Shown: one piece after another, positions 5,857-53,773 of the stretch
How the letters are laid out: each line of letters begins with the position of its first letter
How positions within the stretch are numbered: the stretch's first letter is position 1
Source of the DNA: Marsupella aquatica
Lineage: Eukaryota > Plantae > Marchantiophyta
Direction of reading: 5' to 3'
Length of the DNA: 64,000 bases
Assembly: GCA_973895155.1 (NCBI GenBank)
Contig: OZ316895.1
Location: 4,203,659 to 4,267,658 of the forward strand
The notes under the pieces: generated by a model
The model's input: only the letters and a program-made list of their open reading frames with translations
The model's database searches: none
What the model was told of the DNA's origin: nothing
Program-made: the position numbers and the translations under genes

Positions 5857-6765
5857 GGTTCTCTGTCCAATCTGTTGATTTTGAATCCGGTCGTTTGGCG
5901 CCAAAACCCTCAACCCTGCAAAACGACGGAGTTTGAGCAGAGAGAGGGAACATTCGATTCCAGACCAATTTCGTGCCCTCATGTTGTGTTGTTGGCGATG
6001 AGATTTCGAGAGATTGCCGATGGACAGAACCCTTCTTTTGAATCGTGTTGGAGGGATTGTATAGTATAGTTCTGTAGCTGTTACTAATGAAATGCTCCGG
6101 AAAGAGAAATGAGAAGAGGGCTGCAACTTTGAGTTGTTCGTCTTCGATCGTCGAAGAGAGCTACACGCGTTTTGTTGTGCAGCTTTGAGAACAGGGGACG
6201 AGATTTTACCGTAAAAGACGACGCGACAACTTTCGCTATGATTTGTGGCCTGATTTTGATTAGGATTTGAGAGATTTGCATCGATCGCCTTTGCTGTCCG
6301 GTATGATTGCCGGACGGACAGCGTCGTTTGAGTCTTACTTTGAGTGATTGAAGATGAATGCAATGCTCCGGGACGAGAAGCAGGGTGCAGCGTTGAGGTT
6401 CCTCTTCTTCGTTTGTGGAAGAGAGGCGTTAGATTATTCTCTCTGTCTGCATCGCAATGGGACAGGGTTTCACGTTCTACGTGCGATGGACCTTCCGCGA
6501 CTTTGAGGGAAGAGGGAGAGAAGAAGAAGAAGAACGCGTTCTCTTCGACGGACAACGGGAAGGGATTGCCCGTTCTTTGCTAGTAGGAAGTGTTAGGGAC
6601 AGGTTTCATTGCCATTCAAGGTTTTCATCATCGTTGTCATATCTCCTCCGTAAGATTGACCGACCGAGCAGCAGCAGCAGCAATAATTCTTGCGGAGGGG
6701 ACGGGCAATAGACGGCCATAATATGGCAAAGTAGAAGAAGAAATTGGTTAGATAACTACTCTAGG

Positions 6766-21888: not shown

Positions 21889-24800
21889 ATGGAGTCCATT
21901 TTTTCATTCAGAGTGTGGGTGTGCGGGCATCTCGGTGTGCACAACTTTCACTCAATTGCCTTCTTGCTATCGATGTTAATCTTCAACTCGCAGTGCTTGG
22001 AATTGCGTGCTGCCGATCTGCAACCACTTTATAGTCGACAGCCATATGACATGGAATACAGTAGTAATCATCTCCAAGGTGAGGCTCAAGTACTGGCGCT
22101 GAGGAACTACAGAGCTATAGCAGCTGAGAAACATCCGCATCTGCTTACTCCCGCAAGAGATCTCAAGGTGGCAAGCAGGTCGACAAGGAACGTCAGTAGC
22201 AAAGCAGTAACGGGAGCACTACGCGCGAACCTCAACGGCACAAGAGCACCAGATAGAGAAGTGCAGGCACTTGCAGCTTTCAAGGCAGCTATTTCAGGAG
22301 ATCCTCTGAATGCACTGAAGAGCTGGAACGTGAGGTCTGATTCAGATGTGTGTAGTAGCTGGGCTGGCGTCACATGCTCTCCCCAGCACCCCTACCATGC
22401 GGTCACTCTGATTTTGCCAGATCTTCTACTAGCAGGAAATCTGAATTCGGTGATGTTGGAGTTCAGTCAACTTCCGTTCCTGCGACGCTTGGATCTCTCC
22501 AGTAATTTCTTCACTGGCTCTATCAGGGGGAGGTCGCTGACCAACTTTTCCCATCTCTCGTATTTCAATATTTCGCAAAACTTCCTGACTGGAGAAATCC
22601 CATCCGAGATTGGAGAGCTCCTTACTCTCCAAGATCTCGATGTCAGTGCCAATAACCTTTCTGGACTGATTCCATCTCTTGCAAACTGCTCTTTTTTGAG
22701 AGTCCTCAATTTGGGAGGAAATTTCCTTGATGGAAACATACCTCCCTGGTTCGGGACCTTGCCCAATCTTGCATCTCTGGCATTGAACAGCAATTCTCTT
22801 TCTGGCAATATCCCCAGTGAGCTGGGTAATTGCTCCTCGCTTCGTAACCTCGATGTTTCGGCTAATTACCTTCTAGGGTCCGAGCTTCCTCAAGAGCTCT
22901 CCCAGCTGCAGCTACAAACACTGCAGGCTTATAAGTGCAGCTTTGGTGGCTCTCTTCCTATGTGGATAGGAAATCTGACATCTTTGCGAGGTTTGTCCTT
23001 GTCTTACAATCGTTTCGAAGGAGAAATACCGGAAACAATAGGACAACTGAAGCTCTTGACTGAGCTCTACCTCGGCGGTAACCTCTTGACAGTGTTACCG
23101 CTCTCCGTTTTCAATTGCACATTCCTATCTGAACTGGCACTCGAGAGTAACCTACTTACGTGCCACATCCCGCAGGAAGTAGGGTTACTAGCAAGCCTGG
23201 AAGTGCTGAGCTTGATTTACAATAACTTGACTGGTGTCATTCCTTCATTCCTTCATCCCTGGATAACTGTTCGGCCCTTGTTTTTCTTGAACTAGGGCAA
23301 AACGAGCTCATGGATCCGCAACCATTCCCATCGTGGATAGGATCTCACATAAATTTACAAGCGATCTCTCTTCCAAAAGCGAATCTGCATGGTGAATTTC
23401 CTCAGTTCCTAGGGAACCTCTCCAATCTTCAGATCCTTTTTCTCGACCTGAACAATCTCAATGGAACTATTCCAACTTCCTTGAAAAATTGTCGCTATCT
23501 GAGGGAGCTGGTTGTACAACAGAACAATCTCACGGGTAACATCCCGTCAGAATTGGGGCTACTGAGTTATATGGAAAGTTTCGACGTTAGTGGTAACCAC
23601 CTCACAGGTTCCTTTCCAGCATTCTTTGTCAACTGGACTCAACTGTCATTTTTTTCAGTGACAGTCAATGGCCTCAGCGGGATGCTGGAAGTCCCAACCA
23701 CAGTTGGAAATTTAGACCAATTGATGTACTTTGATGCTTCTGAGAATGATTTCGTAGGATCCATTCCGGAGACACTTGGTAATGCTTCAAATATAATTAC
23801 ATTGTATTTATATGGCAATCGCCTCAGTGGAGCGATTCCAAGCTCGTTGGCGAATATGACGTTAACGCAGTTGGCCCTTGACCATAACCGGCTACAGGGA
23901 AACGTTCCGGTGGACCTCTTCAGCTTTGGTCGTGGGTTCGGTTTCCTCGATCTGAGTGTCAATCTCCTCGAAGGCAGCATTCCTTTCAACATTGGCGAGC
24001 TTTCTGGATTGGGCTTTTTGAATTTGAGCCACAACAACTTCAATGGGACCATTCCTAGCTCTCTAGGAAATTGTTCCAACATGAATAAACTTGATCTTTC
24101 CAACAACCACTTTGAGGGGGTACTTCCGGCTTCGGCGATTGCGGCGATGTCCACCTCGCTCTTGTATTTGAGCCTTGCGCAAAATCTCTTTTCGGGGTTT
24201 TGGCCTAGCGAATTTAGGAAGGTGGTCAACATTCAAGTCATCAATGTATCAGCGAATTACCTCTCTGGATCTATCCCCCTAGGCCTCGGGGACTGCTTAT
24301 CTCTACAAAGCTTGGATATGTCCATGAATCGTTTTACAGGAGAAATTCCGCAAGACATTGGGTTGCTTATGAGTCTCGCGTTTTTCAATGCTTCGTTCAA
24401 TGAGTTTGAAGGACCTATACCTCAGATGGGACTCTTCAACACCAGCGGCATCAATGGAGATTCATTTTTGGGAAATCCTGCTCTATGCGGTCCTCCGGGT
24501 ATCATCGGACCAAACCATCACGAGTGTGCCGTGGCTCCGACGAACGTCAGCTGTCATGGAAGTTGTGAAGGTTTCAAATGCACAAACGTGTGGATACCCG
24601 TTACAGCGGCGGCAATCACTTCAATATCGCTGCTAATTGTTTTCATTGTGACTGGGATCAAGTTGCGCTGGAGTGCTTTCAGAGGTTCGAGAAACATGGA
24701 TGGCGACAAAGAGGTCATGATTAACTTTGCTACTCACGTTAGATTCACGGAAAGCGATGTGTTGCGAACAATCAATGATCCCAGCAAAGATAATATCATT

Positions 24801-26137
24801 GGAGGAGGGGCCTCAAGTATTGTTTACAAGGGTGTTCAGCCAGAGGGTGTAGAGTTTGCGGTGAAGAAGCTTCTCCCCGCAGTTGATGCAGCTGGCAATA
24901 CAGATTTGAGGGATAGCCGTGTCAGCAACCACCCCGGCAACCACCCAGAGAGAGACCAAGCCAAAGAAGCAGAAGCTATGGCAAACTTCCGACATAGAAA
25001 TATACTAAAGTGTTTGGCTTTCTACTCCAAGTTGGACCTAAGAGCACTGATTTTGGAATACTTGTGTGAAGGAAGTTTGCATGAACATCTTCACGGAGGG
25101 AGAGAATGTAAGCTTACATGGGAAACCAGACTCAAAATAGCCATGGGTCTGTCCCAAGGACTACGGTATCTACATCATGATTTACCGGAGCCCATCATTC
25201 ATAGAGACTTAAAGCCTAGGAATATCCTTCTGGATGCAGATTTCGAGCCCAAAATTGGTGACTTTGGTATCTTTAAGTTTGTCAATCAACTAAGAGATGG
25301 GCAGGCCATAGCGTCAACATTTTGTGGAACAATTGGTTACATGCCACCAGGTGAGAATGTGCACATTTAGATATAGTAGCGGTAAGTCCAACTGTCTAGT
25401 TATTACACGCTAATTTTCCAGTTTATTTTCTTCGTTTTGTTCTATGCTAGATCATTCAGCTTAGTCTATGGAATGGCAAATCATTGTCCAAATTTTTAGT
25501 GAAACTTAGATGCAACTTTCCAAGTTCACTTGGCAACTGGTTTTGAACAGCTGAAGTATTTGATGAACAGTCTTAGGCACACTCTTGAAGGTACATTCAT
25601 CGTCATATATTAGTTCATATACATTTGTTCAAATATTGAATGTCACATACATGGTAGCTGGCAGTTGTCCCCTTGATTTCGGTGATACTTTACTCATTGA
25701 TGATATTTTGAATGTCTTTCAGAATACTCCAGCAGTCCATTGGTCTCCACCAAAGGTGATGTTTACAGCTATGGGATGGTCCTTCTTGAGCTTCTTACAC
25801 GAACACAATCATCATCAATGACAGACGTAGGGGATTTCTCCTGAAAATTATTCAAAACGTAGAGAAATCCTTTGAGTTGCTGGATCCATATCTTTTGGAG
25901 GAGTGTCGTTCTGACAACAAGGCCATGGAACAAATTATGTTGCTGTTAAGGGTGAGCCTTTTCTGCACGAGATTGGTGCCACTAAGCCGTCCTTCCATGA
26001 TTGATGTGGTAGGAATGCTGACGTTCATCGTAAATTTTGGAGTAGAATCTGTTCGTAAGAGAACAGTAGACGAGCTTGCAAATGACAAGGATCCTAAGAT
26101 TTGGTCGTATGAGGACCCAGCACTCCCAGCAGCTTAG
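21889..26137 (+). pseudogene. LRR receptor-like kinase (LRR-XI/XII-like architecture) with two frameshifts
   Basis: N-terminal hydrophobic segment, LRRNT (ALKSWN...CSSWAGVTC), many LxxLxLxxNxLxGxIP repeats, NPALCG cap and TM helix. Kinase motifs GGGASSIVYKG, AVKK, HRDLKPRNILLD, DFG, GTIGYMPP|EY, KGDVYSYG and RPSM. Intron 25351-25722. Frameshifts at about 23240-23255 and about 25830. Confidence 0.85.
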
Positions 26138-36777: not shown

Positions 36778-39700
36778 ATGAAAGAGGTGAAGCATTCATC
36801 AGAAGGATCCTCGAGCTCGAATAGTGTGGAGAGCGTGGCGGGGACCCTGGTAACGAGAGCCTGGAACCCCAAGTTACCGAATGATTTCAATGCGGGTCTG
36901 TGTACTGTGGCTGTCGTATCGCTAATGATAGTCATGTCAATAAAGGATACGGTAAAGACCAGCTTTTTAGATGACATCAAACGTCTGATCGTCAGTCCTT
37001 GGGATCTACCAGAAGCGGACATGCCGCAGCATTGGAATTACAGCTCTCATGAGTTTCTACCTGTCATTTCCGACTGGGACGAACAGAGGTTGAGATCGAT
37101 AGAAGCAGATCCAAAGTTCAAGGCACTGAATGGGGCACGACCGCGAGTTCTAATGGTGACGGGCTCTTCTCAAGACGAGGGTGAGCTCTACGTATTGTCC
37201 CATCTTTTACTGAGAGCTGGAAAGAACAAACACGACTACACTCAAACACACAAAATACAACTCTACTACAACATGATCAACCCGGACCCGGAGTTTAGTG
37301 AGTGGTGGGTGAAGCTTCCGGTCGTTCGAATGCTCATGCTGCAACATCCAGAGGTAAAAGCATGTCTATCGAGACATTGTTCAAACTCTTAGTCCAGGGT
37401 TCCACGTACAAAGGAGACTTCATGTTGATTCGTTACTTCGCATTAATTTACTTTTCCGCAATGCGCTGTCGGGTTTAATTTGAATGCTCTTTACTGAAAT
37501 CGGGACTGCAATAAGGTCAAGACCTAGGAGTCGTAAGCATGATTATTCGAAACTTGAAACATGGTGATCGAGAGGCCTGTGCTACAAGTGAACCTTTTAC
37601 GTATGCCCCGTAATTAAGGACTATTGCGTGCCAACGTCAGAATTAATTTTGCTTTGAACTGCGCGTGTCTGAATTATTATTCACGTGAGCCTTCTATAAT
37701 TCCCAACCTTCACATTTGGTCCTAGCTACAGGTAGCTTTCATCGTCGACAGAGCAACTCTTGCCATCCACAGTCGTATCACAACCTTGCCGTTGTTACTA
37801 ATTTGAGATATCCTATGCTTGGGATACGACCGTGGACAGTCTGTCCACACTTCTGTTGGACATTACAATATCCTTTTAAGTAGGCAGCTTCCGAATTTTG
37901 GAGCCCTAAGTACCTGGCCTGGATTCGGACAAGCAGTCTCACTGTCGACCAACCGACGATTCAAGCGTTGGAATGGTTTGGATAAACTCTGTCCGGTGTA
38001 CGATGAGTTTTAACAACCCAGGATGGCTTCGATATGAAATCTCCCTCTCTTAGCTGTCCAGTTGTCAGACTGGACCTTCATTGTTTAGCCATGTCCTCGG
38101 TTTTGAACAGACTCGAGTCGGGTAACGTCATACATCGTCATTAATTCCGGTGATGAGCTACCTTTGGAAGATTTTGAAGAAGAATTGAATTCCCTTATAC
38201 AGACCACATTAGATAGGTAAATCTCATACATTCAGCCATGGTGCAAAGGGAATCTGTTGTGCGAATTGACTCACCCGACTCAAGGGGCTGTGAACAAAAG
38301 AACTTGGAGTGTTTGAATTGTCAATGTTATGTAATTAAGTCTCTGTATAGTACAGAGTTCACTAAAGCTTGCACGGGTTACAGCGAGCTTCCAATTGCGA
38401 ATATTCAGAGCCTCTTTTCAGTCAACCTCTCAGAAACTCCAGTCCTGAGATTTACTCTGATCTACATCAAAATTGTGATTTCTTCAGAATTCTTATCAGC
38501 GATGACTCTTTGGCGTGCTCAGGTGGAGTGGATATGGTGGATGGATGCAGATGCAGTTATCACAGATATGACATTTCAGCCTCCCTTCGCAAATGTAGAG
38601 CGCTACAATATGGTTTTATACGGAGAGGATCGCCCGGTTCACGATAAATTGGATTTTTCAAGCCTAAGCACTGGAATGTTCATGATTCGAAATTGTCAGT
38701 GGTCTCTAGATCTGCTGGGAGCGTGGGCGGATAGGGGAACAGACAGCAAGAGAAAAGAGGCTGGCGATGTGATAGTTCAGGGTGAGATGGAGGTTTATCA
38801 AACCATAGACGTCGTCCCAGGAGATGATCGGTCGAGCCTTGTTGCCCTCCTCGCCAAGGACAAAAGGAATCCCTCTGGCGATCAAAAGTGGGTTCCAAAG
38901 GTGAAGCTGGTCGAGGGCACGGAGTATGTCATGAATGGGAACTGGAAGGTCGTTGGACCTAAACTCGAAGAGCTGAGCCCGGGGCTGAGCCTAGACAGAG
39001 ATCACAAACTGCCCTTCGTGACCCATTTTAAAGGCTGCTTGCCCCATCCCTCCGAGGTCCCCCGGCTCTCAAGACAAGATTCGCGAGATTTCAATGATTG
39101 TGTGGAGCAACTTCAGCGCGCATTCGACTTTGCTGAGAACCAGGTAGGAGATTAAAGTCTACATCTCAGGAGTACAGCATGCACAGTTTTCTTTTGGGGG
39201 ATCGGAGTCGAAAGAGAAGATTTGTGATGAGTGCCAAAGATGACCAATCACACAACAACCGTTGTCGTACAGAAGGAATGGTGATCAAACTCTAAACTTT
39301 TTTTGGTAGGTGTTGAAAGAAACTAAGAAGTTTTCTCGTTTCAATTTTACTCGAACAGGAATTTATGCTTCTATAACGCTGTTCTGTGCAAAAGAGGTCT
39401 TATTTGTGTGAAATTGTGATCCACATTCACTGAGCGGGAGGAACCTCAATGTTCTCGACACATCGGCTCGACCCATTTAGACAGGTGGAAAACATGAAAG
39501 GTAGTGTGGGACTCGGTGGAGAATTAAAGTTGAGGACGACTCAAACCTTCGCCACTCAAATCTAGACATCAGCAGATTACAAAGCGACTCTTTGCCTGTC
39601 ATACTTAGATATAAAGGGGCTTTTGGAGTTTACCATGGGCAGGCGGATGTTTCGACCTTAGCTGCATATTGACGAATTAATCTCTTGCAGGTCTACAAAA

Positions 39701-41925
39701 AGCTGGGTCTAGAACGGACCACTCTTGGCAACTCTTCAGAACCATTCACCTGGAAAGTCGCTCCTGAAAAACACTCGCCAGAAACGGAGTTTAGTATCCT
39801 ACCTATCGTAACAGGTTGGGATGAGGCGCGCAAAGCTTACATGGAGAGTGAACCTGGGATTGCACAGGACTTGGCAATGCTTATTAGCGGATCCTCACCG
39901 ACACCGTGCACGGTGAACGAGGGATCTCACCTTCTCGTTAGGTAATAATCAGATTTTCAAATGTTTCAACGGCCTCTAACTGTCACCATTTCAAGGACCT
40001 TTCATAAGTTGCTCTTGTCCTAGCTTCCTTCTTGAGGGATCGCCCTAGACCATTAGTGCTGCTTTAGTATCATAACGTGATTTCGGGAAAAATAATGAAT
40101 GTCATTTTTCTTGTGACCATACGTCAGAGTAATGCTGACGAGCCACGCAGATCACTGTAAGAATTGCGGGATCCAGGTCCTTAAGGTGGACTCTAGCTGA
40201 CAAAATCGAGAATACTGCTAATTTGCTTGTTGCTAGCGCTATCTTCCAGAATTCCTCCTCGTAGTGATCTTTGTTGTTCAATTCTTTGTAAATTGATTCG
40301 ATTTGACCTTGTAGCTGGTCTTTTAATCACCTTTGAGTTTTTTGGCACATGATTTCAGGGGACTAAAGAACAAAATAGACTACGGTCGCGTGCATGGCAT
40401 TAGAATGTTCTACAACATGGCTGTTCTTCACAAGACGTTGAAAGGTAGTTTGAGTACCATAGGCATTTTTCGAGTGCACTGAACGTGCCAATTATTAGTC
40501 TTCTGCATTTGGGCCAAGTTCTTGGCGACTGTACATGTTCTCCAAAAATGGACAGGAAATCAATCCAGATGGAATAATTTATCAAAATAATTCTTATTCA
40601 TAGAATCAGGTTTTCTGGCTATGCTGTTAGATCGAATCAATTCGTGAATGGTTTAGGAGGGTTAAACAGATTAGATTGTTAATTAAGTGTAGATTTAACT
40701 AATCAACTTTAGACTGTTCACAGAGTCACAAACAGTTTATCCAAAAGCATTTCACGGAATGACGACCGTTCGTGTTTTATGAACATATCAGAAGATTGGT
40801 TTGCGAAGCTTCCAGTTCTTAAAGTGATGATGATAAACAGCCCAGATGTGGAGTGGATTTGGTGGACCGATAGCGATGCTGTGTTCACAAGTATGGATTT
40901 TAAAATCCCATTTGAAAGGTAAAATTCTGTTTTTGACTCTGCTATATCTCGACATTGACTCTAGGGCGTCATTTAAATTTGCCTTATCCAGCTCCAGGAT
41001 GGCGGACGTGTCAGCACAACAAAATAAACAAAAATGACGGACAAGGTCTTTATTTTCAGCACAATGTGTAGACCCATTCATGAACTGCGCATAATTATGT
41101 GCGGGCAATCGTGCAAGTGAGCTAAATTATATATTTGCTATGGTTCGCAGGTACAATGTCAGTGGCTACAACCTTGTGCTGTGGGGTGACGAGCATGAAG
41201 TGTTCGACCTAAAGAAATACAACGGGATCAGCACCGGAGACATGTTCATACGAAATTGTCAGTGGTCATTAGACCTCTTGGACAGATGGGCTGCGTCAGC
41301 AAATCTCACAGGAGACTTTTTGCGCTCTTTTCTTGACAGGCCATCAATGGAGCTCGCAGACGACCAGTCCAGCTTGGTCTATTTGCTCTTAACGGAGCGG
41401 GAGAGATGGGCATCTAAGGTGTACTTCGAGACTGATATTGTGCTGAGTGGGGAGTGGCACTACTGGAGCAGGCTCTTCAGCGATGAATACAGAATGCGCG
41501 CAGATGAGAGGCCACTCATAACCCATTTTGCGGGCTGCAGTCCTTGCGAGGAGAAAGTTGGTACTGACTTATGTCATGAGAGGTTGGACATAACGTACAA
41601 TTTTGCTGATAACCAAGTGCTGGGCAACTACGGGCTTCGCCATGAGCGCCTTAACTCGTCACGTATCATTGGCGATTTTCAGGGAGATGCGAAGCTGTGG
41701 ACCCATTTTGAGATAGAAGGAATGGTCACTAAATCTGCGGACGAACTCTCAGCAAGGAACAAGGTCTTGGATCCAACCAAAGAGGAGGTGAATGTTATTA
41801 CACAGAAGGAAGAGGAGGGAAAGATGGAGCCAACCAAGGAGCAAGAGGAGGTGGCCGAAAACAATGAGGAGCAGCGGGAGGAGGTGACCGGAACGAAAGA
41901 GGAGACGGTGGAGCCAATGACGTAG
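36778..41925 (+). CDS. GT34-family glycosyltransferase (XXT/GMGT-like) with two tandem GT34 domains and an acidic tail; paralog A, about 810 aa
   Basis: Exons 36778-37353, 38523-39143, 39691-39941, 40359-40444, 40792 (or 40795)-40918 and 41151-41925, all GT-AG and in frame. N-terminal TM helix. GT34 motif series (WDE.R, GSS, KNK.DY, W.KLP, WIWW.D.DA, IRNCQWSLDLL, DD[QR]S, THF.GC, FA.NQV) occurs twice. Confidence 0.88.
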
Positions 41926-43772
41926 CAAGATGAGATGACTACGACGACTAAAGAGAAAGCAACAGGTGACCTCAACCAACGGGGACGAGCAAGCACCGCA
42001 ACCAAAGAGAAGTAGAGAAGGAAGAGGACGAAGAGAAGAGGAGATTGAGGTCGAAGACAAAGAGGTCCCGACTGAGGAGCAGAGAGTGGAAGAACAAGGA
42101 AACTTGGTGGACTGGCGAGGAAAATGTTGGTATACCCAAAGAAACTGAACCTGGTAATGAAAGCCTAGCTTGAAGGGATGGAAGCATCCAACACGGCAGT
42201 ATAGGGTGGGAGAAATATGTGTATATATAGGAGAAGGTTGACTAATTCTAGAAGTATCAACTTGGCAAGGTACCTGAGAAATGAAGGTCCCTAAGGACGA
42301 GAAGGTGCAGCCAACGTAGTAACGGGCGTAGGAAAATATGATGAGCAGAAACCTGATAAACCCTAAGAGCTAGGAATTAATTAATCGCCAGGAGGAGCAA
42401 ACCACTCAAAGCCAGAAGAAGCAAGAGGCACGTAGTGACAGTTCAGTACGTACTCCAGCAAATGGGAAGTCAGCTGCAGCCATGCTAGAGAAATTCGAGG
42501 ACCCCTAATGGATGGTGAGGCATTGCATAGAGCAGGGTCGGGACAAGATGTTGCCAACCGATGGCTTGTAAGCAGGACTCAACTACGGGTCCCGCTACGG
42601 GCACGAGGGCAGAAGTCGGAGTACTGAAGGAGGGTAGGACGGAGTTTCATCAAACCTGCCAGAGAAAACTATCTAACAGAAACGCGGAGGAGACTGCGTT
42701 ACTAGCTAATTTACAGTCCACACTCAGGAACCAGGACAACGACACAGCTAAGGAGGCGCCCAAAGAGGTATAAAACATTTCCAGTTGGTCGCGAGAAGTT
42801 TGTGAAAAGCTTCCGAGTGTCCTCAACAGCCAGATTTGCCAGGATATTGTCCAGCATCAACCCGAGAGAGCGGCTCCCTTCAAACTGACATTCTTCCACT
42901 ACGATTCTGCTCCTATATGTGATATAAGTTCTACCTGCTCTGTGTATATTTGTTCTTTTCATAGGGAAATGTCGTGACGCTGAGAATGCAGTCTCAAGGA
43001 TTTTTACTGGAAGAGTTACTGATTGTACGAGAGGAAGATTCCTGGTTGATTGCTCTTGTTGGAATTCTTCGCAACGGTTATCTTTTTGGGGATCCTGGCA
43101 AATGATATCAAATAAGAGCAAAGCCTTATGCTCTTTGGTCAAAATCTGTATTTGCTCTTACAAGTTGCGTGAAAATGTGGGGGTAAATTTGTACGGTTGA
43201 GGACAGCGCTGAGGCTGGCATTAATTTCTATTTTGGATTTTGTGATCCATCAACCACCCTGTGAAAGCATTTGAGAATCCAAATTAAACCACCTCTGATT
43301 GGAAAAACAAAGCGCTATGGCCAGAATCTGTGGCCTTCAATCGTTTTTTGCTTTTCAGAGACCAAAACTGGCAACCCAGTTCTTGAATTAGAGAATGTGC
43401 AGAAAGTTTCAAACTGGCAACCCAGTTTTTCATTTACAGTCTCGTAAGAGAGACATTGAGTATATACTGATCGCGGATGAGGTCGGGAGAAGCGCGCAAC
43501 GTGACTCAATGTGAGACACAGAAAGTAACGCAAGAGACATAAAAATCCCAAAGGCTAAAAAATGAAAATTGATTACTCCTTACTATGTCGCTAAGTTAGC
43601 AAAGCCAGATGCAAGGGCGAACGACGACAATGGCCAAAACGGGAGACAACGGGAAGTTACAATAGTGCGTCTCAGTCCTTAACAAGATAAGGCCCACCCA
43701 GGCCTTAACAAGATAAGGCCCTTCAGTGACAACCAACCCAAAGCTCCCACAAGGAAACTGCATGGGCAGAGG

Positions 43773-43838
43773 ACATTACCATATTATTAACCACACTCTG
43801 TTAACATTACCATATTATTAACCACACTCTGTTAACAT
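43773..43838. repeat. 31-bp tandem duplication
   Basis: acattaccatattattaaccacactctgtta occurs twice. Confidence 0.9.
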
Positions 43839-45791
43839 TGGCACATACTGTTTGCCTGTGTTGGACTGTACTGCACAATGTGGTTCAGTGGCCGTGGCCA
43901 AAATTTGAACAAGCCTTGCTCTTTGGTAAGTGAGATCAAAGATGGAAGACAAGAATACTCAGACGAGAATACTCAGCAATGGTGTTCGCAAGTTAGTTTT
44001 GCAAGTGTGCCCACATTGAAACTCATCGCATTGGAAGGAAGCTGAAAGGAACTTTTGTGTACACCATTTTTGGAGTATGAACAAAAAGGAGGAACATTAA
44101 TTTGCACTGTCTAGATTGTGGAGTACATTGACAAATTGTACAGTTTAAATTGTGTACATTGTGGAGTTAGTACATTAATAAATGCACATTTGGTCCTACA
44201 AATCTGTACTATAGTTCAATCTACTCTTGATCTAGAATTGTAAGAAGATCCTTACAAAGTGGTCAACAATGCAGTTTGCCTAGTTGCTTAGCTGCCAGCT
44301 TCAATGCATGTTGTTGCTCTCCTTTCACTTTCTTCAAGGCCTTCTCTACATAGAAGGCTTCTAAGGCCATTGATGCTTTCTGTCCAATCAGTGCTTGGCC
44401 TCAGCCTGAGCTTGGGTTCTGGCTTCACGTTGCTCAGTAATGTCTTGGCCCTTCCACTTGTCACGACTTACAATAAAATAATTCTTTCTGACAATCAGCC
44501 CCAGGTACACAACTCTTGCATAATAGGCAGGGTCTACATATTTATATATATGGACTAAAAAGTTGGCTATAAGAAAAATTTAAATTTGAAAAACTTGGGT
44601 TTTTCCACTTTTAAATAGTTTGAAGTCATATTTAAAAGGTTTGGTTTTATTATTTTCCCACATAAAATTAAAAACTATTCCTAAAGTGTAAGTTGTAATT
44701 TTTATTAAAGTATTTTTAGAATGATGATTGTATTGATTTACTTCTCTCGTTATTAAATTCTTTATTAAATATGAACTATATATTTGTGTATAACTGAAAA
44801 AATGCATAAATAAAATAGATTTTATTATTTTATATTATTTATAGGAGAGATGATTAAATTAATGATGCAAGCATAACTCTTGTGAGGTCACCTTTAGGAC
44901 AGGTTGTTTGAGCCGTATGGGGGGAACTGGCACATACAGGTATGATGAGACCCAAGCAGTTGGGTGTGGCAACGAGTGGGCTCAATTATGCTAATCTAGC
45001 TATTGTACAATTTTAGACCATCTCCAGAGGTTGTCCAAACATTTGCAAATTTGACTTCCCCATTCAAGCCTTTTGCATTTGCATTTATTGAAGTAAAATT
45101 CAGCAGATTTTCGTCTAAGCGTGTGTGACCTGCAAGAAGGGACCCAGTTTGCTTTCGTGAATCACACAATCACGTGAGTGCCCGCAACCTCTTGAAAGTC
45201 ACTTTCAATCTAACTAATATTTTCGTCTTAGAAAGCTACGCTTGGAAGCCTATGACGTACACTCAGCCTCTCAGGTGGCGGCAAAGTAATAATTCGTGAA
45301 TTTCTGATCGAAAGGTACCTAGCCTCTCTGGAGCTCATGGTTTAGACTGTGATTCTCAGGTGGCGGCAACAGGTGAGGAAGGCAAAGCTTGGTCAGTCAA
45401 TGTCTTGTAAAGCAGCCACACTGATTGCTACGAAACTGATTGGACAGGCACGACGACCAGGTGTATCCTGACGAGCTCTTGTGGACGTCCTCCTGCCTCA
45501 TGTCCTTTATTTCGGATCCAAAATGAATGACTCGGCAACTTAATTGTGCACACAACATCACCTTTTCGACAGATCTGGTACACTGTCTGTGACTTCTGCT
45601 GCGAAATTGAGCACGAACTGATTCGCTTGGACGGTGGTGCTCGACACTAGTCCGTGTGTGTGTAAACATTCATATTCGTTCTGAAAACTTTAACCTGGTT
45701 AGTGGTGCTCATGTATCCCAGAAACTTTATTAAACTTGCTTTTCAGTGTGAGGGCAGAATTTTACCAGCCGGCCACTTTTTCCCATCTCTT

Positions 45792-46088
45792 CAGTTTGCA
45801 TCTACTTCAGTTTGCCTACAGGTATGTTCTTGGTTTTCTGTTCCTGGATTTTGTTGCTTCGGCTGGGCTCCTTTGGGCTTTTTGGCAGTTTGCATCTACT
45901 TCAGTTTGCCTACAGGTATGTTCTTGGTTTTTCGTTCCTGGATTTTGTTGCTTCGGCTGGGCTCCTTTGGGCTTTTTGGCAGTTTGCATCTACTTCAGTT
46001 TGCCTACAGGTATGTTCTCGGTTTTATGTTCTTGGTTTTTCGTTCCTGGATTTTGTTGCTTCGGCTGGGCTCCTTTGAGCTTTTTGGC
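45792..46088. repeat. 94-bp tandem repeat x3
   Basis: cagtttgcatctacttcagtttgcctacaggtatg at 45792, 45886 and 45980; the third copy has a short internal duplication. Confidence 0.92.
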
Positions 46089-48092
46089 TCTTTCCCCTTG
46101 ATTGGGTCTCTCCCTCTGGAGTCGGCTGGACTCCTTTGACCTTTTTACCTCTTTCCCCTTGTTTGGGTCTCTCTCCTCTGGGGTCATGTTTCCTGGTTGG
46201 GAGACTTCTGATTTTATAGCTTGTTATACTAGGTGACACCTTGCCAAAATATATGCTTGTGACCTATTTCAGCACGACAAAAGTTCTGGGTGAATTTTGC
46301 CCCCGATTTTGCCTCAGGTCGAAGAATTCAGATCACTCCGTCTGGAACTTAATGTCTTCCCGATTTCCCAAACCCCGAACCCCGAACCGGCCAACTTATA
46401 ATTCCTCACCTATAAGTAGGGACATCAATTTACTCCAATGGGCGAATTATTTTGCGAATTATTTATTGTTTCAGTCAACCTAGTTACTAGGGTATCCCAA
46501 AAAACAGGTTCATGTTCGTCAAAATTTGTCCTCTTAATGATTTACATAATGGAGTGTCTAATTATTGTACGTAAATATTCTGGTCATCAGGTGAATTTGT
46601 ATTTTTGTGTACCCAACCTATGAAGGTTCCTATAGCCACACCTTTTGGACGTATAGCTCACTAGGTAGCCACTGACCTTTCGTACGTTTAAGTACTATAG
46701 TATTTGCTGATGTCAAGGAATAAAAATTGAGGAATCAGACATTTGCCACATAATATAGTGTTTCCTTGACTGGAGGTCGACGACATTGAGACTCCTTTCG
46801 AAGACTCAGGTAGTCCGACCGTCTTTGCGTGATTGAATTTGGGGCCAACGCGATGTACACGGTATGTTGCATGATCTCCTCCTGTTAGGCCGCAGTGGTA
46901 TAGGGCTTTACAGTACAGAAGGCGTTTCTAATTTGCATTTTCGTTGAATTGCAGTCTGCTTCGTTCAGATTTTCCTGGGCTCATACTAGACCGCATTGGT
47001 ACGGGGCTGCGCTGTACAGCGAGCGTTTCTAGTATACACTCTCGTTCAATTGCAGTTTGCTTGGTTCACAGTCCAAACTTCAATGCACTGAATCCCTGGA
47101 AATGTGAAACGGGCCCTTGATTCTGACGTGGGAAATTTCCGTCGACCGTAGAGTCCCAGCCTGTTCCATGGTGGCAGTCGGTACCTGGATTGCACTGGGA
47201 TTGGGAATTGGTCTCGAAATCCGTACGAGGTGCTACTGAGATACTGGCGCACTCGCAGTAGAGACAGTACGTAGCTCCGATCCTAGGGCCGTGTGGGATA
47301 TGACAAACTTGATTGTAAATCCAGTGAAGCGATCGATCCTTTTGGGCTATGAATCGGACCTGTTTTGTTATTAAGTCAGAAATCCAGGTGAGTGATCAGG
47401 TTTTTAGCTGATACTCCCTTCAGCTGTGGCTAGGTGCTATGACGTCTTGAATTAAGTCCCCTTTGAAAGATGTGTTGGTCGGACCGAAGGTATTTGAGCT
47501 CTGGATTTTGTAACGGTTTCGCGATTAGGCGAAGCTCAAATACTCTGTACCTCATCAAATAGTCTGCCAAGTTGAGAAATCCTGTTGGGATTTTCGGATC
47601 CGAGTTAGCGTTTTTTCTAGCTCGATCAGTTCGCTGTGCTCACAAGTCTCGGAAATTTTCTAAAGTTATTAGAATTTTACAATAATTATGCTGAATTATT
47701 TTGATGATAACACGAATTGAAGGGTGACTGAAAGTTTTCTAACTTGTCATGCAGCCGCTGACGATGTCCACGATTCCATGCGAATTCGAGTGTCAGTGAC
47801 AGAATTCCTGGATCGATTGCTTTGGGCTTCTGCCTTTCAATTATTGCAGTTTCTCAGCTCATCCGTTGTCAAGGTCCGCATGAGTTACAACAGGATAAAA
47901 TGGCAGTAGTCATGGATCGACAGTAGTCATGGATCCTAGAAATTGTGATCATGATTCTCCGATCAGTCAAATATAGCTGACACATTTGAGCCGATCGAGC
48001 TCCAGCTCAAGGATTGCGCGCAATTTTGTGAATGATTATACTCTCGGCGTTTAAGACACTGAGCTGATCAATCGCAGGCGCTCAACGTCAAG

Positions 48093-51000
48093 ATGAAGTA
48101 TACGAAGATGAGGCAGCCAAACTTTAACGGAGGGATACGAATTCCTAGAAGTAAAGTCTGGAGCAACCTGCACTGCAATGTGGGGCTTGTTATTCTGGCT
48201 GGAGTGACGGCCTTAGTGATTATGTTCGAGCGGGAGAGTTCTGAAATCAGCGCTGGTCTGCTCGATGACTTGAAAAGCGTGATGGTCTCGTCTCGCTCGG
48301 TGAATGAGCCACATTGGAACTACAGCTCCTATAGTTTCTCGCCGAACGTTTCTGATTGGGACGAGCAAAGGGCAACATGGATGACGGAGCATCCCAGTCC
48401 GAGGGCAAGAGCGGGTGGAAAGCCCTACATTATGATGGTTACTGGCTCCTCCCCAAAAGCATGTGATCCCACAATTCTCTCGCACCTTTTTGTGAGGAGC
48501 AGTAAGAATAAAGTGGACTACAGTAGGTTGCACGACATTGAGCTCTACTACAATCTCGGTGAGCCGGACGAGCATTTCAGTGACTGGTGGGTGAAGCTGC
48601 CTGTCATTCGAATGCTCATGCTGCAACATCCACAGGTAAGCTGTCGACTGCCTTGTGCGAGCTCTCATGTAAATTGAAACGTACTTAGTTTAATTATGGG
48701 CCTCTTCGATCGATTATGGGCCTCTGACTTCGATTAATTATGGGCCCAAGGTTCAGATCTTGGGAATGTACATCTGTTTGAATGTGGAGCTGAATCGAGG
48801 GCTCAATTTTAGCTCCGCGTATTTCTGGACGAACACCTCTCGACACACATGATGGCTGTTTTTCCTGGAATTCAGCGGAAGTCGCCAAAATCGGTCCCTA
48901 GACAGCATCATGCACGTACGGGGTTCGGTTTGGAAGCGATCAAATTAAAAAAGTACTTTCACCGCTTGAAAAGTGCATAACTTTGTTTTCCTGGCATCTC
49001 TTCAATTTCGTCCAACACTAACCTTCGTCCAACTCTAACCATCAGTCAGAATTCGATCTCTGACTGAATTGAACGACATTTTAAGACTGTCATCTTTGCC
49101 AAGGGCTGCCGAATTGATATGCAGTGTCCTGTCGCCGATTGCTCAGGTAGATTGGATGTGGTGGCTCGACGCAGATGCGGTGATCACAGACTTGTCATTC
49201 GAGCCGCCCTACCCAGAGCTCGAGCACGACAACTTGGTGCTGTATGGAGAAGAGGGACAGGTATACGATAGAAGAGCCTGGAAGGGCCTCAGCACCGCCA
49301 ATTTCATGATCCGAAACTGCCAGTGGTCTCTCGACCTCCTTGATGATTGGGCGTCTATGGGTAAGACCAGCGTCAGAGAGGAGGCTGGAAAGTTCCAGAG
49401 CGAACTATTGAGCGATCGACCGCGGGACTTCGCAGGGGATGATCAGTCAAGCCTTGTCGCTCTGCTTGCTCAGGACAAGAGAAAGCCCGTAGGAAAGCAG
49501 CGGTGGGCACCCATGGTTAAGCTGGTGAAGGAGACCGAGTACAACATGGCCGCCAATTGGACAGTGGTTGGGCCAAAACTAGAAGAGCTGGGCCTGCCTG
49601 GACATGAACCTGTGCCTTTTGTAACTCACTTTGCAGGCTGCCTGCCTTCCTGCAATGTCAAGCCGCAGATGTCGAAACCATTTCTGGATGCATGTGTTGA
49701 GCAACTGGGGCGCGCTTGTGATTTCGCTGACAATCAGGTGAGCATTTCGTCGAAGTTGCCGCAGTACTAGAACTGCGCTGAACTAAGCAATTCCCTTCGA
49801 ATCCTGCCCCATGGTATCTCGGATTGCATTTCTTTGAATGGAGAGCAACCTTTTCTTTTCCATAATTGCAAAAAGGCCGACCCTTTTATTCTATTTGATA
49901 TGATTTTCAGGAGTTCAAAGCATATTGGGGCCTGTCTAGATAGCTTCGGGGGCAATTAACCGAGTGAGGGAACGGTTCATGTGTATCATTCTGCAAGTTG
50001 GAAGGTGGACCAACTAATTTATGGTCGAGTGATAATTTATCAGTTCACATGAGAGCCAGAGAGGAGGATTCACGAACACCAGAGATGGTGAACTGGTGGC
50101 TATCTCCTATGTTTAGCGGAAGCTGGGTGCGGGTGAGCTTTCTCTTCGCACAGGTGGCAGATAAATCACATAATTTAGGATGCGAATGAAACTAAGGTTG
50201 CATGTCTGACATACAGATATACAAGGAATTTGGGTTCGAACCGCGCAGACTTGGAGACCATGTAGAGCCGCTGGAAAAGAAACAACCCACTGGTGCCGTT
50301 ACGAAGGAATTCACAGCTGATGGGGAAGAGATCTACAGGATACCTCCCAGGTATTCGGATTGGGATGAGAGGCGCCTAGCGTGGATACAGCAACATCCTC
50401 CCACCAAGAGGGATGAGGTGATCCTTGTGAGTGGGTCTGCGCCGGATCCTTGCCCAGGGAAGCAAGGGAGTCATCTGCTTCTTAGGTATGCATTAATAAT
50501 TGACATCTCGATGCTACTCTTTTGTGTAAGTCAAGTTCTCTTAGCTAGCTGGTAGAAATGATAATGTACTATTGACACGCATGGGTTTTCCATCGACTTG
50601 TTTGGCAGCACAAGTCAAATGTGCAATTGTACGTGAGGCTGGTGATGACCATACATACAATCCCTTTTGCGCAGGGGATTGAAGAATCTAATCGACTATG
50701 GCCGCAAAAATGACGTGATAGTCTTCTACAACAATGCAGCGATAGACAAGAATTTGACAGGTTTGTATTCCATCCTGCTAGACTTTGCCAGCAATCTACT
50801 GGAGGTGGCGACATCACGCGTTGAGTTTATGTTTGAAGCAGTATTTCTATCCTCCAGCTAGCTATCGAGAAATGGATCTTGAACTGTATTTCTCCATATC
50901 ACTCGATACTCCTGCAGTATTTTTCTGTGAGTCTACCCCTCGATAAGATCCTTGTCCACATGTATCTGATTGGCAGTCAACAATTCAGAGTCGGTTCCTA

Positions 51001-52942
51001 CATCTGCTGCTGACTCTTTGTTCGATGTTTACACTTCTATGCTTTCAGGCTGGTGGACGAAACTTCCGCTCCTGAGAATGCTGATGCTATACAATCCAGG
51101 AACGGAGTGGATTTGGTGGCTGGATAGCGATGCTGTGTTCACAGACATCGATTACAGACTCGATTTTGCAAGGTGCCTTTGCGAATACCCTACCATTAAA
51201 TATCACCCTTTGTTGACTTTGCTTAGGCTCGGGTATTGATTAATTGTGTCATCACCTCGGGTTTCCGTTCGCCTGAACCTGCTTTGTCTACTATGAATAC
51301 TAGACATGCCCATAAACAAGTACCATCATCACTACGAATATGTCTAATGTCACATGAGAAACTATGTGTAATAATCTAAAAGGCGAAAGGAAGAAGTACG
51401 AGTATCAAAGGAAAAGACTAAAAAACGAAAATCTTCGGGGTTGTTTTTGCCGCTCTTGGATATATCGGGCGATATGTAGCAAAAGTTCTCTATCGCAAAC
51501 GCTATTGCGGGAGCTTTAATGTTTTTCTATCTCATATAAATGATGCAACTTGCTACAAAATTAATGCCAATGAAAACAAGTTTTATAGGTTAGAAATGTA
51601 CCACACTCGAATTGATCATGAGGGATGGGCATGCAGTTCATTGTACACAGGAGGTCCTAGGTTCAACTCCTAGTCTGTTCATGTTGTTGACCATCCCAAC
51701 ATGATATCATAGCCAAAGATCAGGAGTTACCCTTGTAGGGATTGTGGCTCAAGGGAGGGTGTTGGAAATGAACCACGCTCCAAACTCATGAGGGATGCAG
51801 GCATCAAGGGTCTGTTGTGTGGCTCAAGGGAGGGTTTTGGGAATGAACCACGTTGGAACTGATGAGGAATGCAGGCATCAAGAGCCTGTACCTCACTCGG
51901 AAGTCCTAGGTTCAATTCCTAGCCAGTCCTGTCCATGTTGTTGACAACATAATAAACGAAGCAGCTGAAATATGTCATTGATAGGTCTACCACAATCATC
52001 TGTGTCGGCGGATTTGAGGATGCTTCAATGTGTTGCTGTAAAATGCGTAGAACTAATCTGCACAAGTTACGAGTTTGGATATCTATTGGAATGTTCAGGT
52101 ACAATGCGAGCGGATTCAACTTGGTCATGTACGGTGAAGAGCATAAGGTGTATGATGAGCGCATGTATAATGGGATCAACACCGGTAATTTCCTCATTCG
52201 AAACTGTCAGTGGTCATTAGATCTCTTTGATAGATGGGCTTCCTTTGGTGCCACTAAAGAAATCAGGGAGAAAAATGGGGATCTCCTGTACAACACCCTT
52301 AGTAGACCACCTAGGTGGGATGCCGACGATCAGAGTGTGTTGGTGTACTTGCTGATCTCGGAACGAGAAAATTGGGGATCAAAGACGAACATGGAGATCA
52401 CGATCTCAATGAGTGGAGAGTGGCAGTTTTGTACTGCGAGATTCCACGACGAATATTTCGCGGGGATACAACCATTTGTGACCCACTTTGCAGGTTGCAA
52501 ACCTTGCCACGACCCAACGTACGACCTGCAGGTGGAGTGTATGAAAGGGATAGACATGACGTACAATTTTGCTGACAACCAAGTCCTCAAACAGTATGGT
52601 CTTCGCCATGTGCACCTGAAATCAGCAAAGCTTCTCCATAGGTCCTCTCTAGTCAACGAAACCCTGTCAGCAGCACAGGACGACAGAAAATACCTTAACC
52701 TGAAGGAGGCCGCTACAACTGAATCTGAGGATTCAGCTGAGCAGCAGAAGACTGGCATTTTGGAGGAGCTTGATCGATTCAGTGAGGAAAAGGTTGACCC
52801 ATCAGAGAAGGACCCGCTTAAACCTTCGAAAATAAAAAAGGTTGGCACCTCTAGAGAGGAGACGGATGAAATATCTGAGGAGAACCAGGTTGACGTATCC
52901 CATGAGGAGCAGGTTGACACGTCAAATGAGAAAGCTGCTTAG
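48093..52942 (+). CDS. GT34-family glycosyltransferase with two tandem GT34 domains and an acidic tail; paralog B, about 818 aa
   Basis: Exons 48093-48635, 49147-49737, 50217-50485, 50675-50760, 51049-51172 and 52099-52942. Intron positions and phases are identical to paralog A, and two full GT34 motif sets are present. Confidence 0.9.
51615..51950 (+). mobile_element. tRNA-derived SINE-like remnant in intron 5 of GT34 paralog B
   Basis: Two T-arm hairpins carrying a B box: CTAGG-TTCAACT-CCTAG (51657-51673) and CTAGG-TTCAATT-CCTAG (51906-51922). A-box-like TGGCTCAAGGG occurs twice within a duplicated unit of about 76 bp. Confidence 0.55.
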
Positions 52943-53645
52943 ACTAGGGAATAATTTACTGAATCCTAGGAGGTGAATCGCAAGAAGGCTGATCATGAGT
53001 AAAAAGACGCGGAGTTGAAGCTATCCAAGGCGAAGATGTCTGCAGCTGATCATGAAGAGGATGTGGAGGTTCCCGAAGAAAAGATGGCAACAACTGAGGA
53101 CGTAGTCGGGACAGTACAGGAGTAATATGAGGACTTCAGTCTAATGAAGTCGAACTGGGGAGTCCCGGAAGTTTGAAGGCATGAAGGCCTAAAAGCATTA
53201 GGCAACAATATAGCGAGGAAGAACAGATCTGTGCTGAATTATTGTAAACGTTCTGGAAGCTCCACTTTCACGGAATAGATAACAAATCTTTTGCAAACTT
53301 CACTCTAAACCTTCAACTTCTTATAGTGATGCGAAATTTCAGGTATATGCCAAAATTCCACCACCAATCTCTTCAAATACGGATGTCCGGAAATAGTCTC
53401 GAGAGAACTCACCCGTTTTATTTCGGACACCGTTGTTGTCCAACTCCCTGCATATGGGGTTAAGTATGGTTGGGAGTGTCAAAACACGTTATTAGGGCGT
53501 GTCAAATCGGGGCAAGTATGGTGGGGAGTGTCTAATAGGGTGTGTCAAATTATAGTCATACTACAAAGGAAGAGGCAAGACATACAATAAATTTATGGTC
53601 AGGACATAACTCCTTCCACTCTAGCTTAATACACTTCCCATAAGA

Positions 53646-53773
53646 ATTTTATGTTCGAAACAAAAGTAGCAATAAAACTTTTCTTATTGTTGAACTTTGA
53701 CACACCAGATTTTATGTTCGAAACAAAAGTAGCAATAAAACTTTTCTTATTGTTGAACTTTGACACACCAGAT
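53646..53773. repeat. 63-bp tandem duplication
   Basis: tttatgttcgaaacaaaagtagcaataaaacttttcttattgttgaactttgacacaccaga occurs twice. Confidence 0.92.

Follow-up and report, generated by a model that had tools for sequence, protein, structure and literature searches.

In this study, we analysed a window of 64,000 nucleotides (the whole stretch of DNA examined) from the liverwort Marsupella aquatica and found two paralogous genes, A and B, each predicted to encode a protein in which a single transmembrane helix (TM) is followed by two complete GT34 domains (D1 and D2), whereas plant GT34 enzymes of the XXT or MAGT type have one catalytic domain per chain. In our preferred reading, to which we assign a probability of about 0.6, A and B belong to a liverwort GT34 subfamily whose members would act as one-chain pseudo-dimers, with D2 as the main catalytic site and D1 chiefly as a built-in partner. 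The gene models consist of the following features, given by position in the window:

36778..41925, + strand, gene A: six exons, predicted 811-aa TM-GT34-GT34-tail protein
36778..37353, + strand, A exon 1: cytosolic tail, TM, stem, start of D1
36886..36942, + strand, A transmembrane helix: about residues 37-55, the sole hydrophobic peak
38523..39143, + strand, A exon 2: D1 core; DxD and H377 equivalent kept; N268→S, Q319→R, K382→L, C384→H
39691..39941, + strand, A exon 3 (fusion exon): end of D1, linker (~39754-39786), start of D2
40359..40444, + strand, A exon 4: D2 dimer helix and strand
40792..40918, + strand, A exon 5: D2 DxD; D at the F203 position
41151..41925, + strand, A exon 6: remainder of D2 (to ~41682; DDQ and H377 kept; N268→S, K382→S), acidic tail
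48093..52942, + strand, gene B: six exons, predicted 818-aa TM-GT34-GT34-tail protein
48093..48635, + strand, B exon 1: cytosolic tail, TM (~48168-48224), stem, start of D1
49147..49737, + strand, B exon 2: D1 core; DxD, DDQ and H377 kept; N268→S, G270→A, G347→A, K382→L
50217..50485, + strand, B exon 3 (fusion exon): end of D1, linker (~50286-50330), start of D2
50675..50760, + strand, B exon 4: D2; placed by homology to A exon 4, without a Pfam GT34 match of its own
51049..51172, + strand, B exon 5: D2 DxD
52099..52942, + strand, B exon 6: remainder of D2 (to ~52654; N268, DDQ, H377 and K382 as in XXT1), acidic tail

The in-frame GT34-GT34 fusion described in the initial annotation, with junctions at 39143/39691 and 49737/50217, was borne out in both genes, each of which has two full domains, one TM and no stop other than the terminal one. 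All 10 introns are GT..AG, and their phases (0, 0, 2, 1, 2) are identical in A and B, as first described. The two profile matches anticipated per protein appeared as a GT34 coverage of 1.93 model lengths in A and 1.95 in B. Among the 12 exon pieces, PF05637 matched seven significantly, in both domains (38.6-68.2 bits against a cut-off of 23), one weakly (E 0.019) and four not at all, including both exons 3 and B exon 4. Hydropathy (KD19) gave one peak per protein (2.1 and 2.15), with maxima of 0.76 and 0.69 beyond residue 100, and the topology is presumably Golgi type II. D1 and D2 share 38-39% identity within a protein, as against 55% between the two D1s and 52% between the two D2s. No third GT34 paralog was found in the window by tblastn. 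Four DNA-like runs, drawn from two studies, have contigs covering this stretch, and the longest contigs over the A junction (runs X1 and X3) and most of B (X1) differ from it by 0 letters, X1 being a possible source of the window sequence itself; these runs contain no splice joints among the joints listed and have no bearing on expression.

The double layout recurs in 12 annotated liverwort proteins (from Calypogeia, Marchantia and Riccia), a liverwort-wide spread that the initial annotation had missed, and a single N-terminal hydropathy peak occurs in 14 of 14 double-GT34 proteins (doubles). The acidic tails noted earlier are real in A and B (80 and 97 aa, 28-29% D+E), but they do not belong to the family architecture: the two cannot be aligned with each other, and only 4 of the 14 doubles have a tail that is both long and acidic. 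In the tree, all 26 domains tested from double proteins formed one clade (support 99/98), with a D1 clade at 99/90, which agrees with the earlier proposal of a lineage-restricted enzyme and points to one ancient internal duplication as the likely origin of all doubles tested; this intragenic duplication would predate the split between Marchantia/Riccia and Calypogeia. The doubles fall outside the angiosperm XXT clade, including its XXT1/2 and XXT3/4/5 clades, and are not nested in the 13-row MAGT-side clade (100/100); they are sister to a group made up of MAGT and a bryophyte clade, with a support of only 81/89. Gene A is sister to Calypogeia fissa P0003 and gene B to C. fissa P0001. A search of 50% clusters (top 150) returned P0007 as the only double and missed the known Calypogeia doubles as well, so the lack of doubles from mosses, hornworts and vascular plants in it carries little weight. 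A three-domain Papaver model, P0098, was considered as a precedent and rejected, as it has three TMs and probably represents three joined genes.

The counterpart in Marchantia polymorpha is Mp3g22350 (MARPO_0024s0013, 830 aa; P0005), filed as an ordinary GMGT by Kang et al. (PMC12398305), and the passages of that article available to us leave its two-domain layout unremarked. When translated, the primers listed for Mp3g22350 in Table S3 match the two termini of P0005, and the 87 rows of the table equal the 87 clones that these passages report as cloned from cDNA, which together indicate that this coding sequence was cloned from cDNA end to end. Its expression was 6.5-24.6 TPM in 10 of 10 samples among those listed. 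Mp3g22350 shares the two-domain layout and the clade with A and B, but it is a single match in Marchantia, in contrast to the tandem expansion in M. aquatica, and it has a long stem, a short tail and intact D1 active-site residues. No description of the double-GT34 layout was found in the literature searched; the layout itself is already in public proteome annotations, with a cloned Marchantia counterpart.

These comparisons also bear on whether two tandem single-domain genes were wrongly joined, as in P0098. We infer the splicing of A and B from the genomic sequence, single-domain fragments of the same cluster are present in the C. fissa annotations, and in gene B an ATG lies in frame five codons upstream of exon 3. 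Yet D1 finishes and D2 begins within exon 3, the matching site of gene A carries a stop and lacks an ATG, and D2 has neither a TM nor a signal, whereas P0098 has three TMs. With the junction annotated identically in five species and the Marchantia sequence cloned, a gene-model artefact appears very improbable.

The Arabidopsis XXT1 homodimer (PDB 6BSU) and XXT2-XXT5 heterodimer (PDB 9P3J; PMC13376630) share with the doubles the GT34 GT-A fold, the DxD and His Mn site, DDQ, the type II TM-stem-domain layout and a dimer surface of helix 2 and strand 2. In the doubles, by contrast, two domains lie in one chain behind one TM, the interface is asymmetric with D168 lost on both sides, and H346, I351 and mostly K382 differ. 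In the pseudo-dimer that we favour, one membrane anchor would carry two GT34 domains that fold back to give the dimer formed from separate chains in XXT1 and XXT2-XXT5; pairing within the chain would run through helix 2 and strand 2, with about 10-26 spare linker residues.

Fold and complex predictions were made on the relatives P0001 (C. fissa) and P0005 (Marchantia) rather than on the A and B proteins. AlphaFold2 single chains reached pTM 0.83 (P0001) and 0.81 (P0005), with more than 100 low-confidence residues each, and the top Foldseek match of the P0001 model was 6bsu_A (E 7e-29, rmsd 2.0 A, 41% identity). D1:D2 pairing scored an ipSAE of 0.91, compared with 0.11 for the best of three controls, a pass that may reflect memorisation by the predictor of the solved XXT1 dimer; 51 of 78 solved and 2 of 108 mismatched pairs attained the mark (39/65 and 2/126 for eukaryotes). 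Runs shared at least 95% of contacts, with partner pLDDT of at least 87. The predicted interface is the XXT dimer surface, helix 2 and strand 2, and includes, on each side, 10 of the 16 XXT2-XXT5 interface positions checked. These models of relatives favour the covalent pseudo-dimer first proposed.

The interface residues themselves are changed asymmetrically between D1 and D2, as judged from the alignment. D168 is present in 60 of 61 single-domain proteins and in none of 26 double domains. Position 175 is small in 13/13 D1 and L or F in 13/13 D2, and H217 is retained in 13/13 D1 with its partner Y414 in 11/13 D2, the 13 doubles representing about three lineages rather than 13 independent draws. 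In A and B, neither side retains its residue of the reciprocal H217/Y414 pair. Some of the D1 deficit falls next to the linker, at positions 404-421. The span of the linker was 39-55 residues in 12 of the 13 doubles measured; in XXT2-XXT5, C-terminal residues 433-436 contact partner residues 120-126, so that a short linker fits. The domains might instead behave as beads on a string or pair between proteins, full-length molecules assembling into dimers or chains by D1:D1 and D2:D2 or by swapped contacts, with no D1:D2 contact within a single polypeptide. Retention of the core interface residues K176 and Y191 in both domains would suit such an arrangement, and D1:D2 was, besides controls, the sole pairing modelled. 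The complementarity at position 175 and the H217/Y414 pattern, however, fit D1:D2 and not like-with-like pairing, and the single-chain pTM values and narrow linker span also speak for contact within the chain; we therefore give pairing between chains little credence.

The two domains are also unequal in their active sites, which the initial annotation had not recognised. The Mn triad (D227, D229, H377) is intact in 13 of 18 D1, 18 of 18 D2 and 65 of 72 singles, N268 is found in 2/18, 17/18 and 66/72, and Q319 in 13/18, 18/18 and 69/72, respectively. H377 is missing from 5/5 Riccia D1, which thus lack the triad and are apparently dead, yet the fusion is retained, implying that D1 activity is dispensable there. 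D2 would be a Mn-dependent retaining enzyme for alpha-1,6 transfer onto a beta-1,4 glycan, and D1 activity would be reduced or shifted in A and B and absent in Riccia; catalytically dead XXT2, which stabilises XXT5, offers a precedent. The split is less sharp in the window, where all four domains keep the triad, both D1s retain DxD and H377, and D2 of gene A is itself altered (F203→D, N268→S, K382→S). In Marchantia, D1 has every key residue found in its D2.

Alternatively, both domains of the same pseudo-dimer may be active with different specificities, in the manner of XXT2-XXT5 joined into one chain or of a combined xylosyl and galactosyl transferase, the glycan being handed from site to site. 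XXT2 and XXT5 share labour likewise, the triad is present in 13/13 non-Riccia D1, and the two domains are consistently distinct at positions 268, 346-351 and 382 of the pocket. Moreover, D1 of the leafy liverworts is as conserved as D2 or more (74% and 81% identity to the C. fissa sisters of A and B, compared with 72% and 72% for D2), which argues against decay of D1. Set against this are the Riccia D1s, the K382→L change in both window D1s, the Q319→R change in A, and G351 of the XXT5-type N+2 pocket, found in 0/36 double domains, the alignment being loose there in D1. We consider this alternative rather unlikely, although the addition of two different sugars by the two domains, as first suggested, is possible.

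For the reaction, xyloglucan xylosylation is our leading candidate at somewhat below even odds; mannan galactosylation is distinctly less probable, and another or mixed activity slightly less so again. The roles of K382, N268 and H346 we presume from general background or conservation. K382 occurs in only 3/36 double domains, among them D2 of B, as in XXTs, and Mp3g22350 TPM tracks CSLC (rho 0.77, p 0.07) and opposes CSLA (rho -0.83, p 0.04) over six conditions from mixed studies, both in favour of xyloglucan. Pointing away from it are the loss of the XXT residue H346 from all 36 double domains (S in 18/18 D2), the GMGT-like Q382 in 7/18 D2, the GMGT filing of Mp3g22350 and the 81/89 join to the MAGT group. 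The mannan alpha-1,6-galactosyltransferases GMGT, MAGT and MUCI10 are likewise GT34 and share Q382 with the Marchantia domains, but doubles lack the MAGT-side insertion near residue 360 and have two domains, each of about 310-320 rather than 345-352 aa. F203 did not separate XXT from MAGT in the alignment. The phosphate-binding lysine called K393 by Julian 2026 probably corresponds to position 382/383.

The initial suggestion that both side chains are added to one glycan at a fixed spacing is set aside as unsupported, since the XXT1 protomers face opposite ways and, according to the part of the source available, probably act on separate chains (PMC9201394), and the predicted interface uses the same surface. 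The two sites would face apart, each serving separate glycan chains. LARGE1 and LH3, distant fold matches to the P0001 model, also carry two GT-type domains in one chain. EXT1/EXT2 are further two-GT-domain proteins, and an active domain is paired with an inactive one in EXT and LH3. LARGE1, LH3 and EXT join different GT families or folds, whereas in the doubles a GT34 domain has been duplicated and the two copies are predicted to restore the dimer of that family.

Glycosyltransferases of the plant wall function as dimers. XXT2-XXT5 is the first heterodimer structure (2026), and the need for pairing was left open (PMC13376630). The doubles would provide a natural one-chain dimer in which stoichiometry is fixed and each site can be inactivated separately, and the natural gradation of D1, intact in Marchantia, altered in the window and apparently dead in Riccia, would directly test scaffolding against catalysis, with the Marchantia gene already cloned in a transformable model. 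The double form is easy to miss because one GT34 phylogeny, in the part of the article available, dropped sequences longer than 600 aa (PMC11785759). The doubles may also aid the design of single-chain XXT2-XXT5 or MAGT enzymes. More speculatively, and in our view improbably, liverworts may have fused an obligate GT34 dimer early, after which the halves specialised in different donors or in consecutive steps; Marchantia and the leafy liverworts would then have a single bifunctional chain for hemicellulose side chains, and Riccia an enzyme coupled to a pseudoenzyme.

The two tandem genes with two GT34 domains, A and B, share the window with three further features:

2-805, minus strand: Copia-type gag fragment
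6712-11315, plus strand: condensin II non-SMC subunit, multi-exon, with PF12422 and HEAT repeats
36778-41925, plus strand: gene A, six exons, predicted spliced frame of 811 aa
48093-52942, plus strand: gene B, six exons, predicted spliced frame of 818 aa
61777-62865, minus strand: ORF with a NIF/FCP1-like phosphatase domain

In addition, an LRR receptor-like kinase (21829-25367, plus strand) is divided between two frames that overlap near 23226-23292, where a short piece is duplicated; it is either a frameshifted gene or an assembly error.

The in-frame GT34-GT34 fusion and shared intron phases described in the initial annotation were borne out by the sequence of both paralogs: all 10 predicted introns were bounded by GT..AG with phases 0,0,2,1,2, exon 3 carried the end of the first domain (D1), a linker and the start of the second (D2), the spliced frames contained no internal stop, and each protein had one TM. 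Reading through into intron 2 reached a stop after 3 codons (A) or 10 codons (B); directly before exon 3, B has an in-frame ATG and A has a stop and no ATG. The Pfam GT34 model PF05637 scored above cut-off on 8 of the 12 exon pieces (exons 1, 2, 5 and 6 of each gene), matched exon 4 of A weakly (E 0.019), and gave no match on exon 3 of either gene or exon 4 of B. Since its profile ranges formed two series along the exons (2-75 and 77-233 in exons 1-2; 29-53, 60-95 and 124-236 in exons 4-6), the model was traversed twice, in keeping with the two hits per protein that had been expected, and a custom GT34 profile built from 23 single-domain proteins was covered 1.93 (A) and 1.95 (B) model lengths. 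DNA likeness between A and B was limited to exons (68-79%, five like-for-like matches), indicating two ancient, still intact paralogs; D1 and D2 had no intron position in common. Sequence over the A junction was matched by DNA-like contigs from two studies. Over intron 5 and exon 6 of A (41050-41420, 41665-41800), deeper contigs with differing letters appeared in all four runs, which suggests that the genome contains additional copies or fragments at other sites. A high-copy repeat containing a 75-bp duplication lay at 51640-51930, within intron 5 of B, and the flanks carried 94-, 61- and 63-bp tandem repeats (45792-46185, 53646-53773).

When B exon 2 was searched against proteins of 346-2000 aa, the best 10 of 97 matches were liverwort proteins of 725-885 aa, all 10 with at least two PF05637 stretches, and two additional doubles were recovered by further searches. 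Altogether, 14 of 277 profiled proteins were doubles of this kind, namely A, B and 12 annotated proteins from Calypogeia fissa (5), Marchantia polymorpha (1), M. paleacea (1), Riccia fluitans (2) and R. sorocarpa (3). Other multi-domain proteins comprised P0098 of Papaver (three domains with three TMs), the garbled gene model P0151 and the PAN-containing P0225 and P0227. The searches, one of which scored the best 7991 candidates and another of which missed known doubles, yielded none from mosses, ferns or seed plants. In the assembled proteins P0225, P0227 and P0290, two GT34 domains were arranged differently: a TM is followed by PAN, a degenerate GT34-like domain, another PAN and an intact GT34. 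The first of these domains lacked DxD and His, reminiscent of the Riccia D1 pattern; this layout probably arose independently. Many fragments occurred among consecutive C. fissa accessions, where model P0029 joined an aconitase piece to a B-like D1 end, linker and D2 start, and P0002 represented a third paralog type absent from the window. The R. sorocarpa models P0008, P0009 and P0010 apparently skipped the first ~55 D2 residues or the last exon, probably through annotation errors.

For the M. polymorpha double, Mp3g22350 (P0005, 830 aa), Kang et al. (2025) cloned 87 CDS from cDNA with a Sanger check from the vector ends, and Table S3, with 87 data rows, includes this gene (PMC12398305). When translated, its listed primers matched the 8 N-terminal and the 8 C-terminal residues of P0005, which indicates that one cDNA carried both ends. 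The gene was classed as GMGT/MAGT, and its two domains go unremarked in the accessible part of that paper (PMC12398305). Expression was 6.5-24.6 TPM in 10 of 10 samples (columns counted by hand).

The domain tree comprised 81 domains, 27 of 108 rows having been removed as near-copies or by angiosperm thinning. All 26 double domains fell into a single branch (99/98) without any single-domain protein inside, in which the 13 D1 formed one branch (99/90) and D2 was paraphyletic at its base. A grouped with P0003 and B with P0001, both from C. fissa, in D1 and D2 alike, and identity of window domains to C. fissa was 72-81%, which points to a leafy liverwort as the source of the window. By sequence, this pattern fits a single intragenic duplication before the Marchantia/Riccia-Calypogeia split, followed by tandem gene duplication. 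The branch lay outside both the angiosperm XXT and MAGT clades, joining MAGT plus a bryophyte clade at weak support (81/89).

AlphaFold2 models of P0001 (pLDDT 83.0, pTM 0.83) and P0005 (82.7, 0.81) contained two XXT-like domains in confident relative placement, and the closest PDB structure was XXT1. Folded as two chains, D1 and D2 of P0001 gave an ipSAE of 0.91 against 0.11 for the best control (contact agreement at least 95%, partner pLDDT at least 87); of 78 solved pairs 51 attained the mark, and of 108 mismatched pairs 2 did. The top contacts (XXT1 positions 171-179 and 189-191, both sides) coincided with the helix 2/strand 2 core reported for XXT2-XXT5 in the available portion of PMC13376630, and 10 of its 16 listed interface positions were recovered per side (missing 119, 121, 123, 133, 217, 219). 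Because the XXT1 structure is already solved, the predicted interface may be recall by the predictor. Independent of the model, residues 433-436 of one XXT2-XXT5 chain contact 120-126 of the other (PMC13376630), so a short linker fits. Between the equivalents of 409 and 126, 12 of the 13 doubles had a span of 39-55 residues (A 43, B 49), the exception being P0008, in which the segment is absent. D168 was present in 60 of 61 single-domain proteins (72 non-double rows minus 11 divergent or Papaver) and in none of 26 double domains. Position 175 was small in 13/13 D1 and L/F in 13/13 D2, and the model juxtaposes the two; H217 of D1 was kept in 13/13 and Y414 of D2 in 11/13, the reciprocal pair being lost in A and in B. 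These changes would suit D1:D2 pairing.

Roles of D227/D229/H377, F203, the two Asp, residue 319 and I351 were drawn from literature; K382, N268 and H346 were taken as putative functional positions. Among 18 doubles, including 5 near-copies, the Mn triad (D227, D229, H377) was intact in 13 D1 and 18 D2 (singles 65/72), N268 was kept in 2 and 17 (66/72), and Q319 in 13 and 18 (69/72); H377 was missing from 5/5 Riccia D1. A set of 69 columns is conserved in 90% or more of the singles, and of these D2 retained more than D1 in 13/13 proteins (means 59.5 and 55.7; singles 66.5). We propose, with a probability of about 0.6, a Golgi enzyme forming its own dimer, in which D2 would catalyse and D1 would chiefly be the partner, much as dead XXT2 stabilises XXT5. 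DxD and H377 are nevertheless kept in D1 of A and of B, identity to sister genes is at least as high in D1 (74 and 81%) as in D2 (72 and 72%), D1 of Marchantia seems unimpaired, and D2 of A has changes of its own. These points speak against a dead D1 in A and B, so D1 is under constraint and may or may not be active. In a rival reading, which we consider less likely, each half would be active with a job of its own. The earlier idea of two side chains added at fixed spacing conflicts with XXT1 protomers that, in the part of a review available to us, face oppositely and probably act on separate chains (PMC9201394).

Regarding substrate, Mp3g22350 expression followed CSLC (rho 0.77) and was inversely related to that of CSLA (rho -0.83), with n=6 drawn from mixed studies. 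This pattern and K382 in D2 of B lean towards xyloglucan, whereas serine at 346, the Marchantia Q382 and the GMGT/MAGT label given to the gene in print lean away from it.

The acidic tail of the initial annotation was present in A and B but is not common to the family: long tails occurred only in A, B, P0001 and P0003 (4/14 doubles), and Riccia doubles place acidic sequence in the stem. In-frame Glu/Thr-rich tail-like sequence continues beyond the stops (41926-42015 in A, 52943-53125 in B), interrupted by stops at least past B; it represents eroding tails. The tail of A cannot be aligned with that of B, and together with the broken sequence beyond the stops this points to loose constraint on tail length.

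Databases already display two Pfam hits for these proteins, and the GT34 tree in the accessible part of PMC11785759 excluded sequences above 600 aa. No description of a two-domain GT34 was found by full-text searches of the open-access literature, including the available portions of PMC12398305, PMC8211770 and PMC11785759. The double GT34 is a real, liverwort-wide architecture inside a known family, and apparently an undescribed one.
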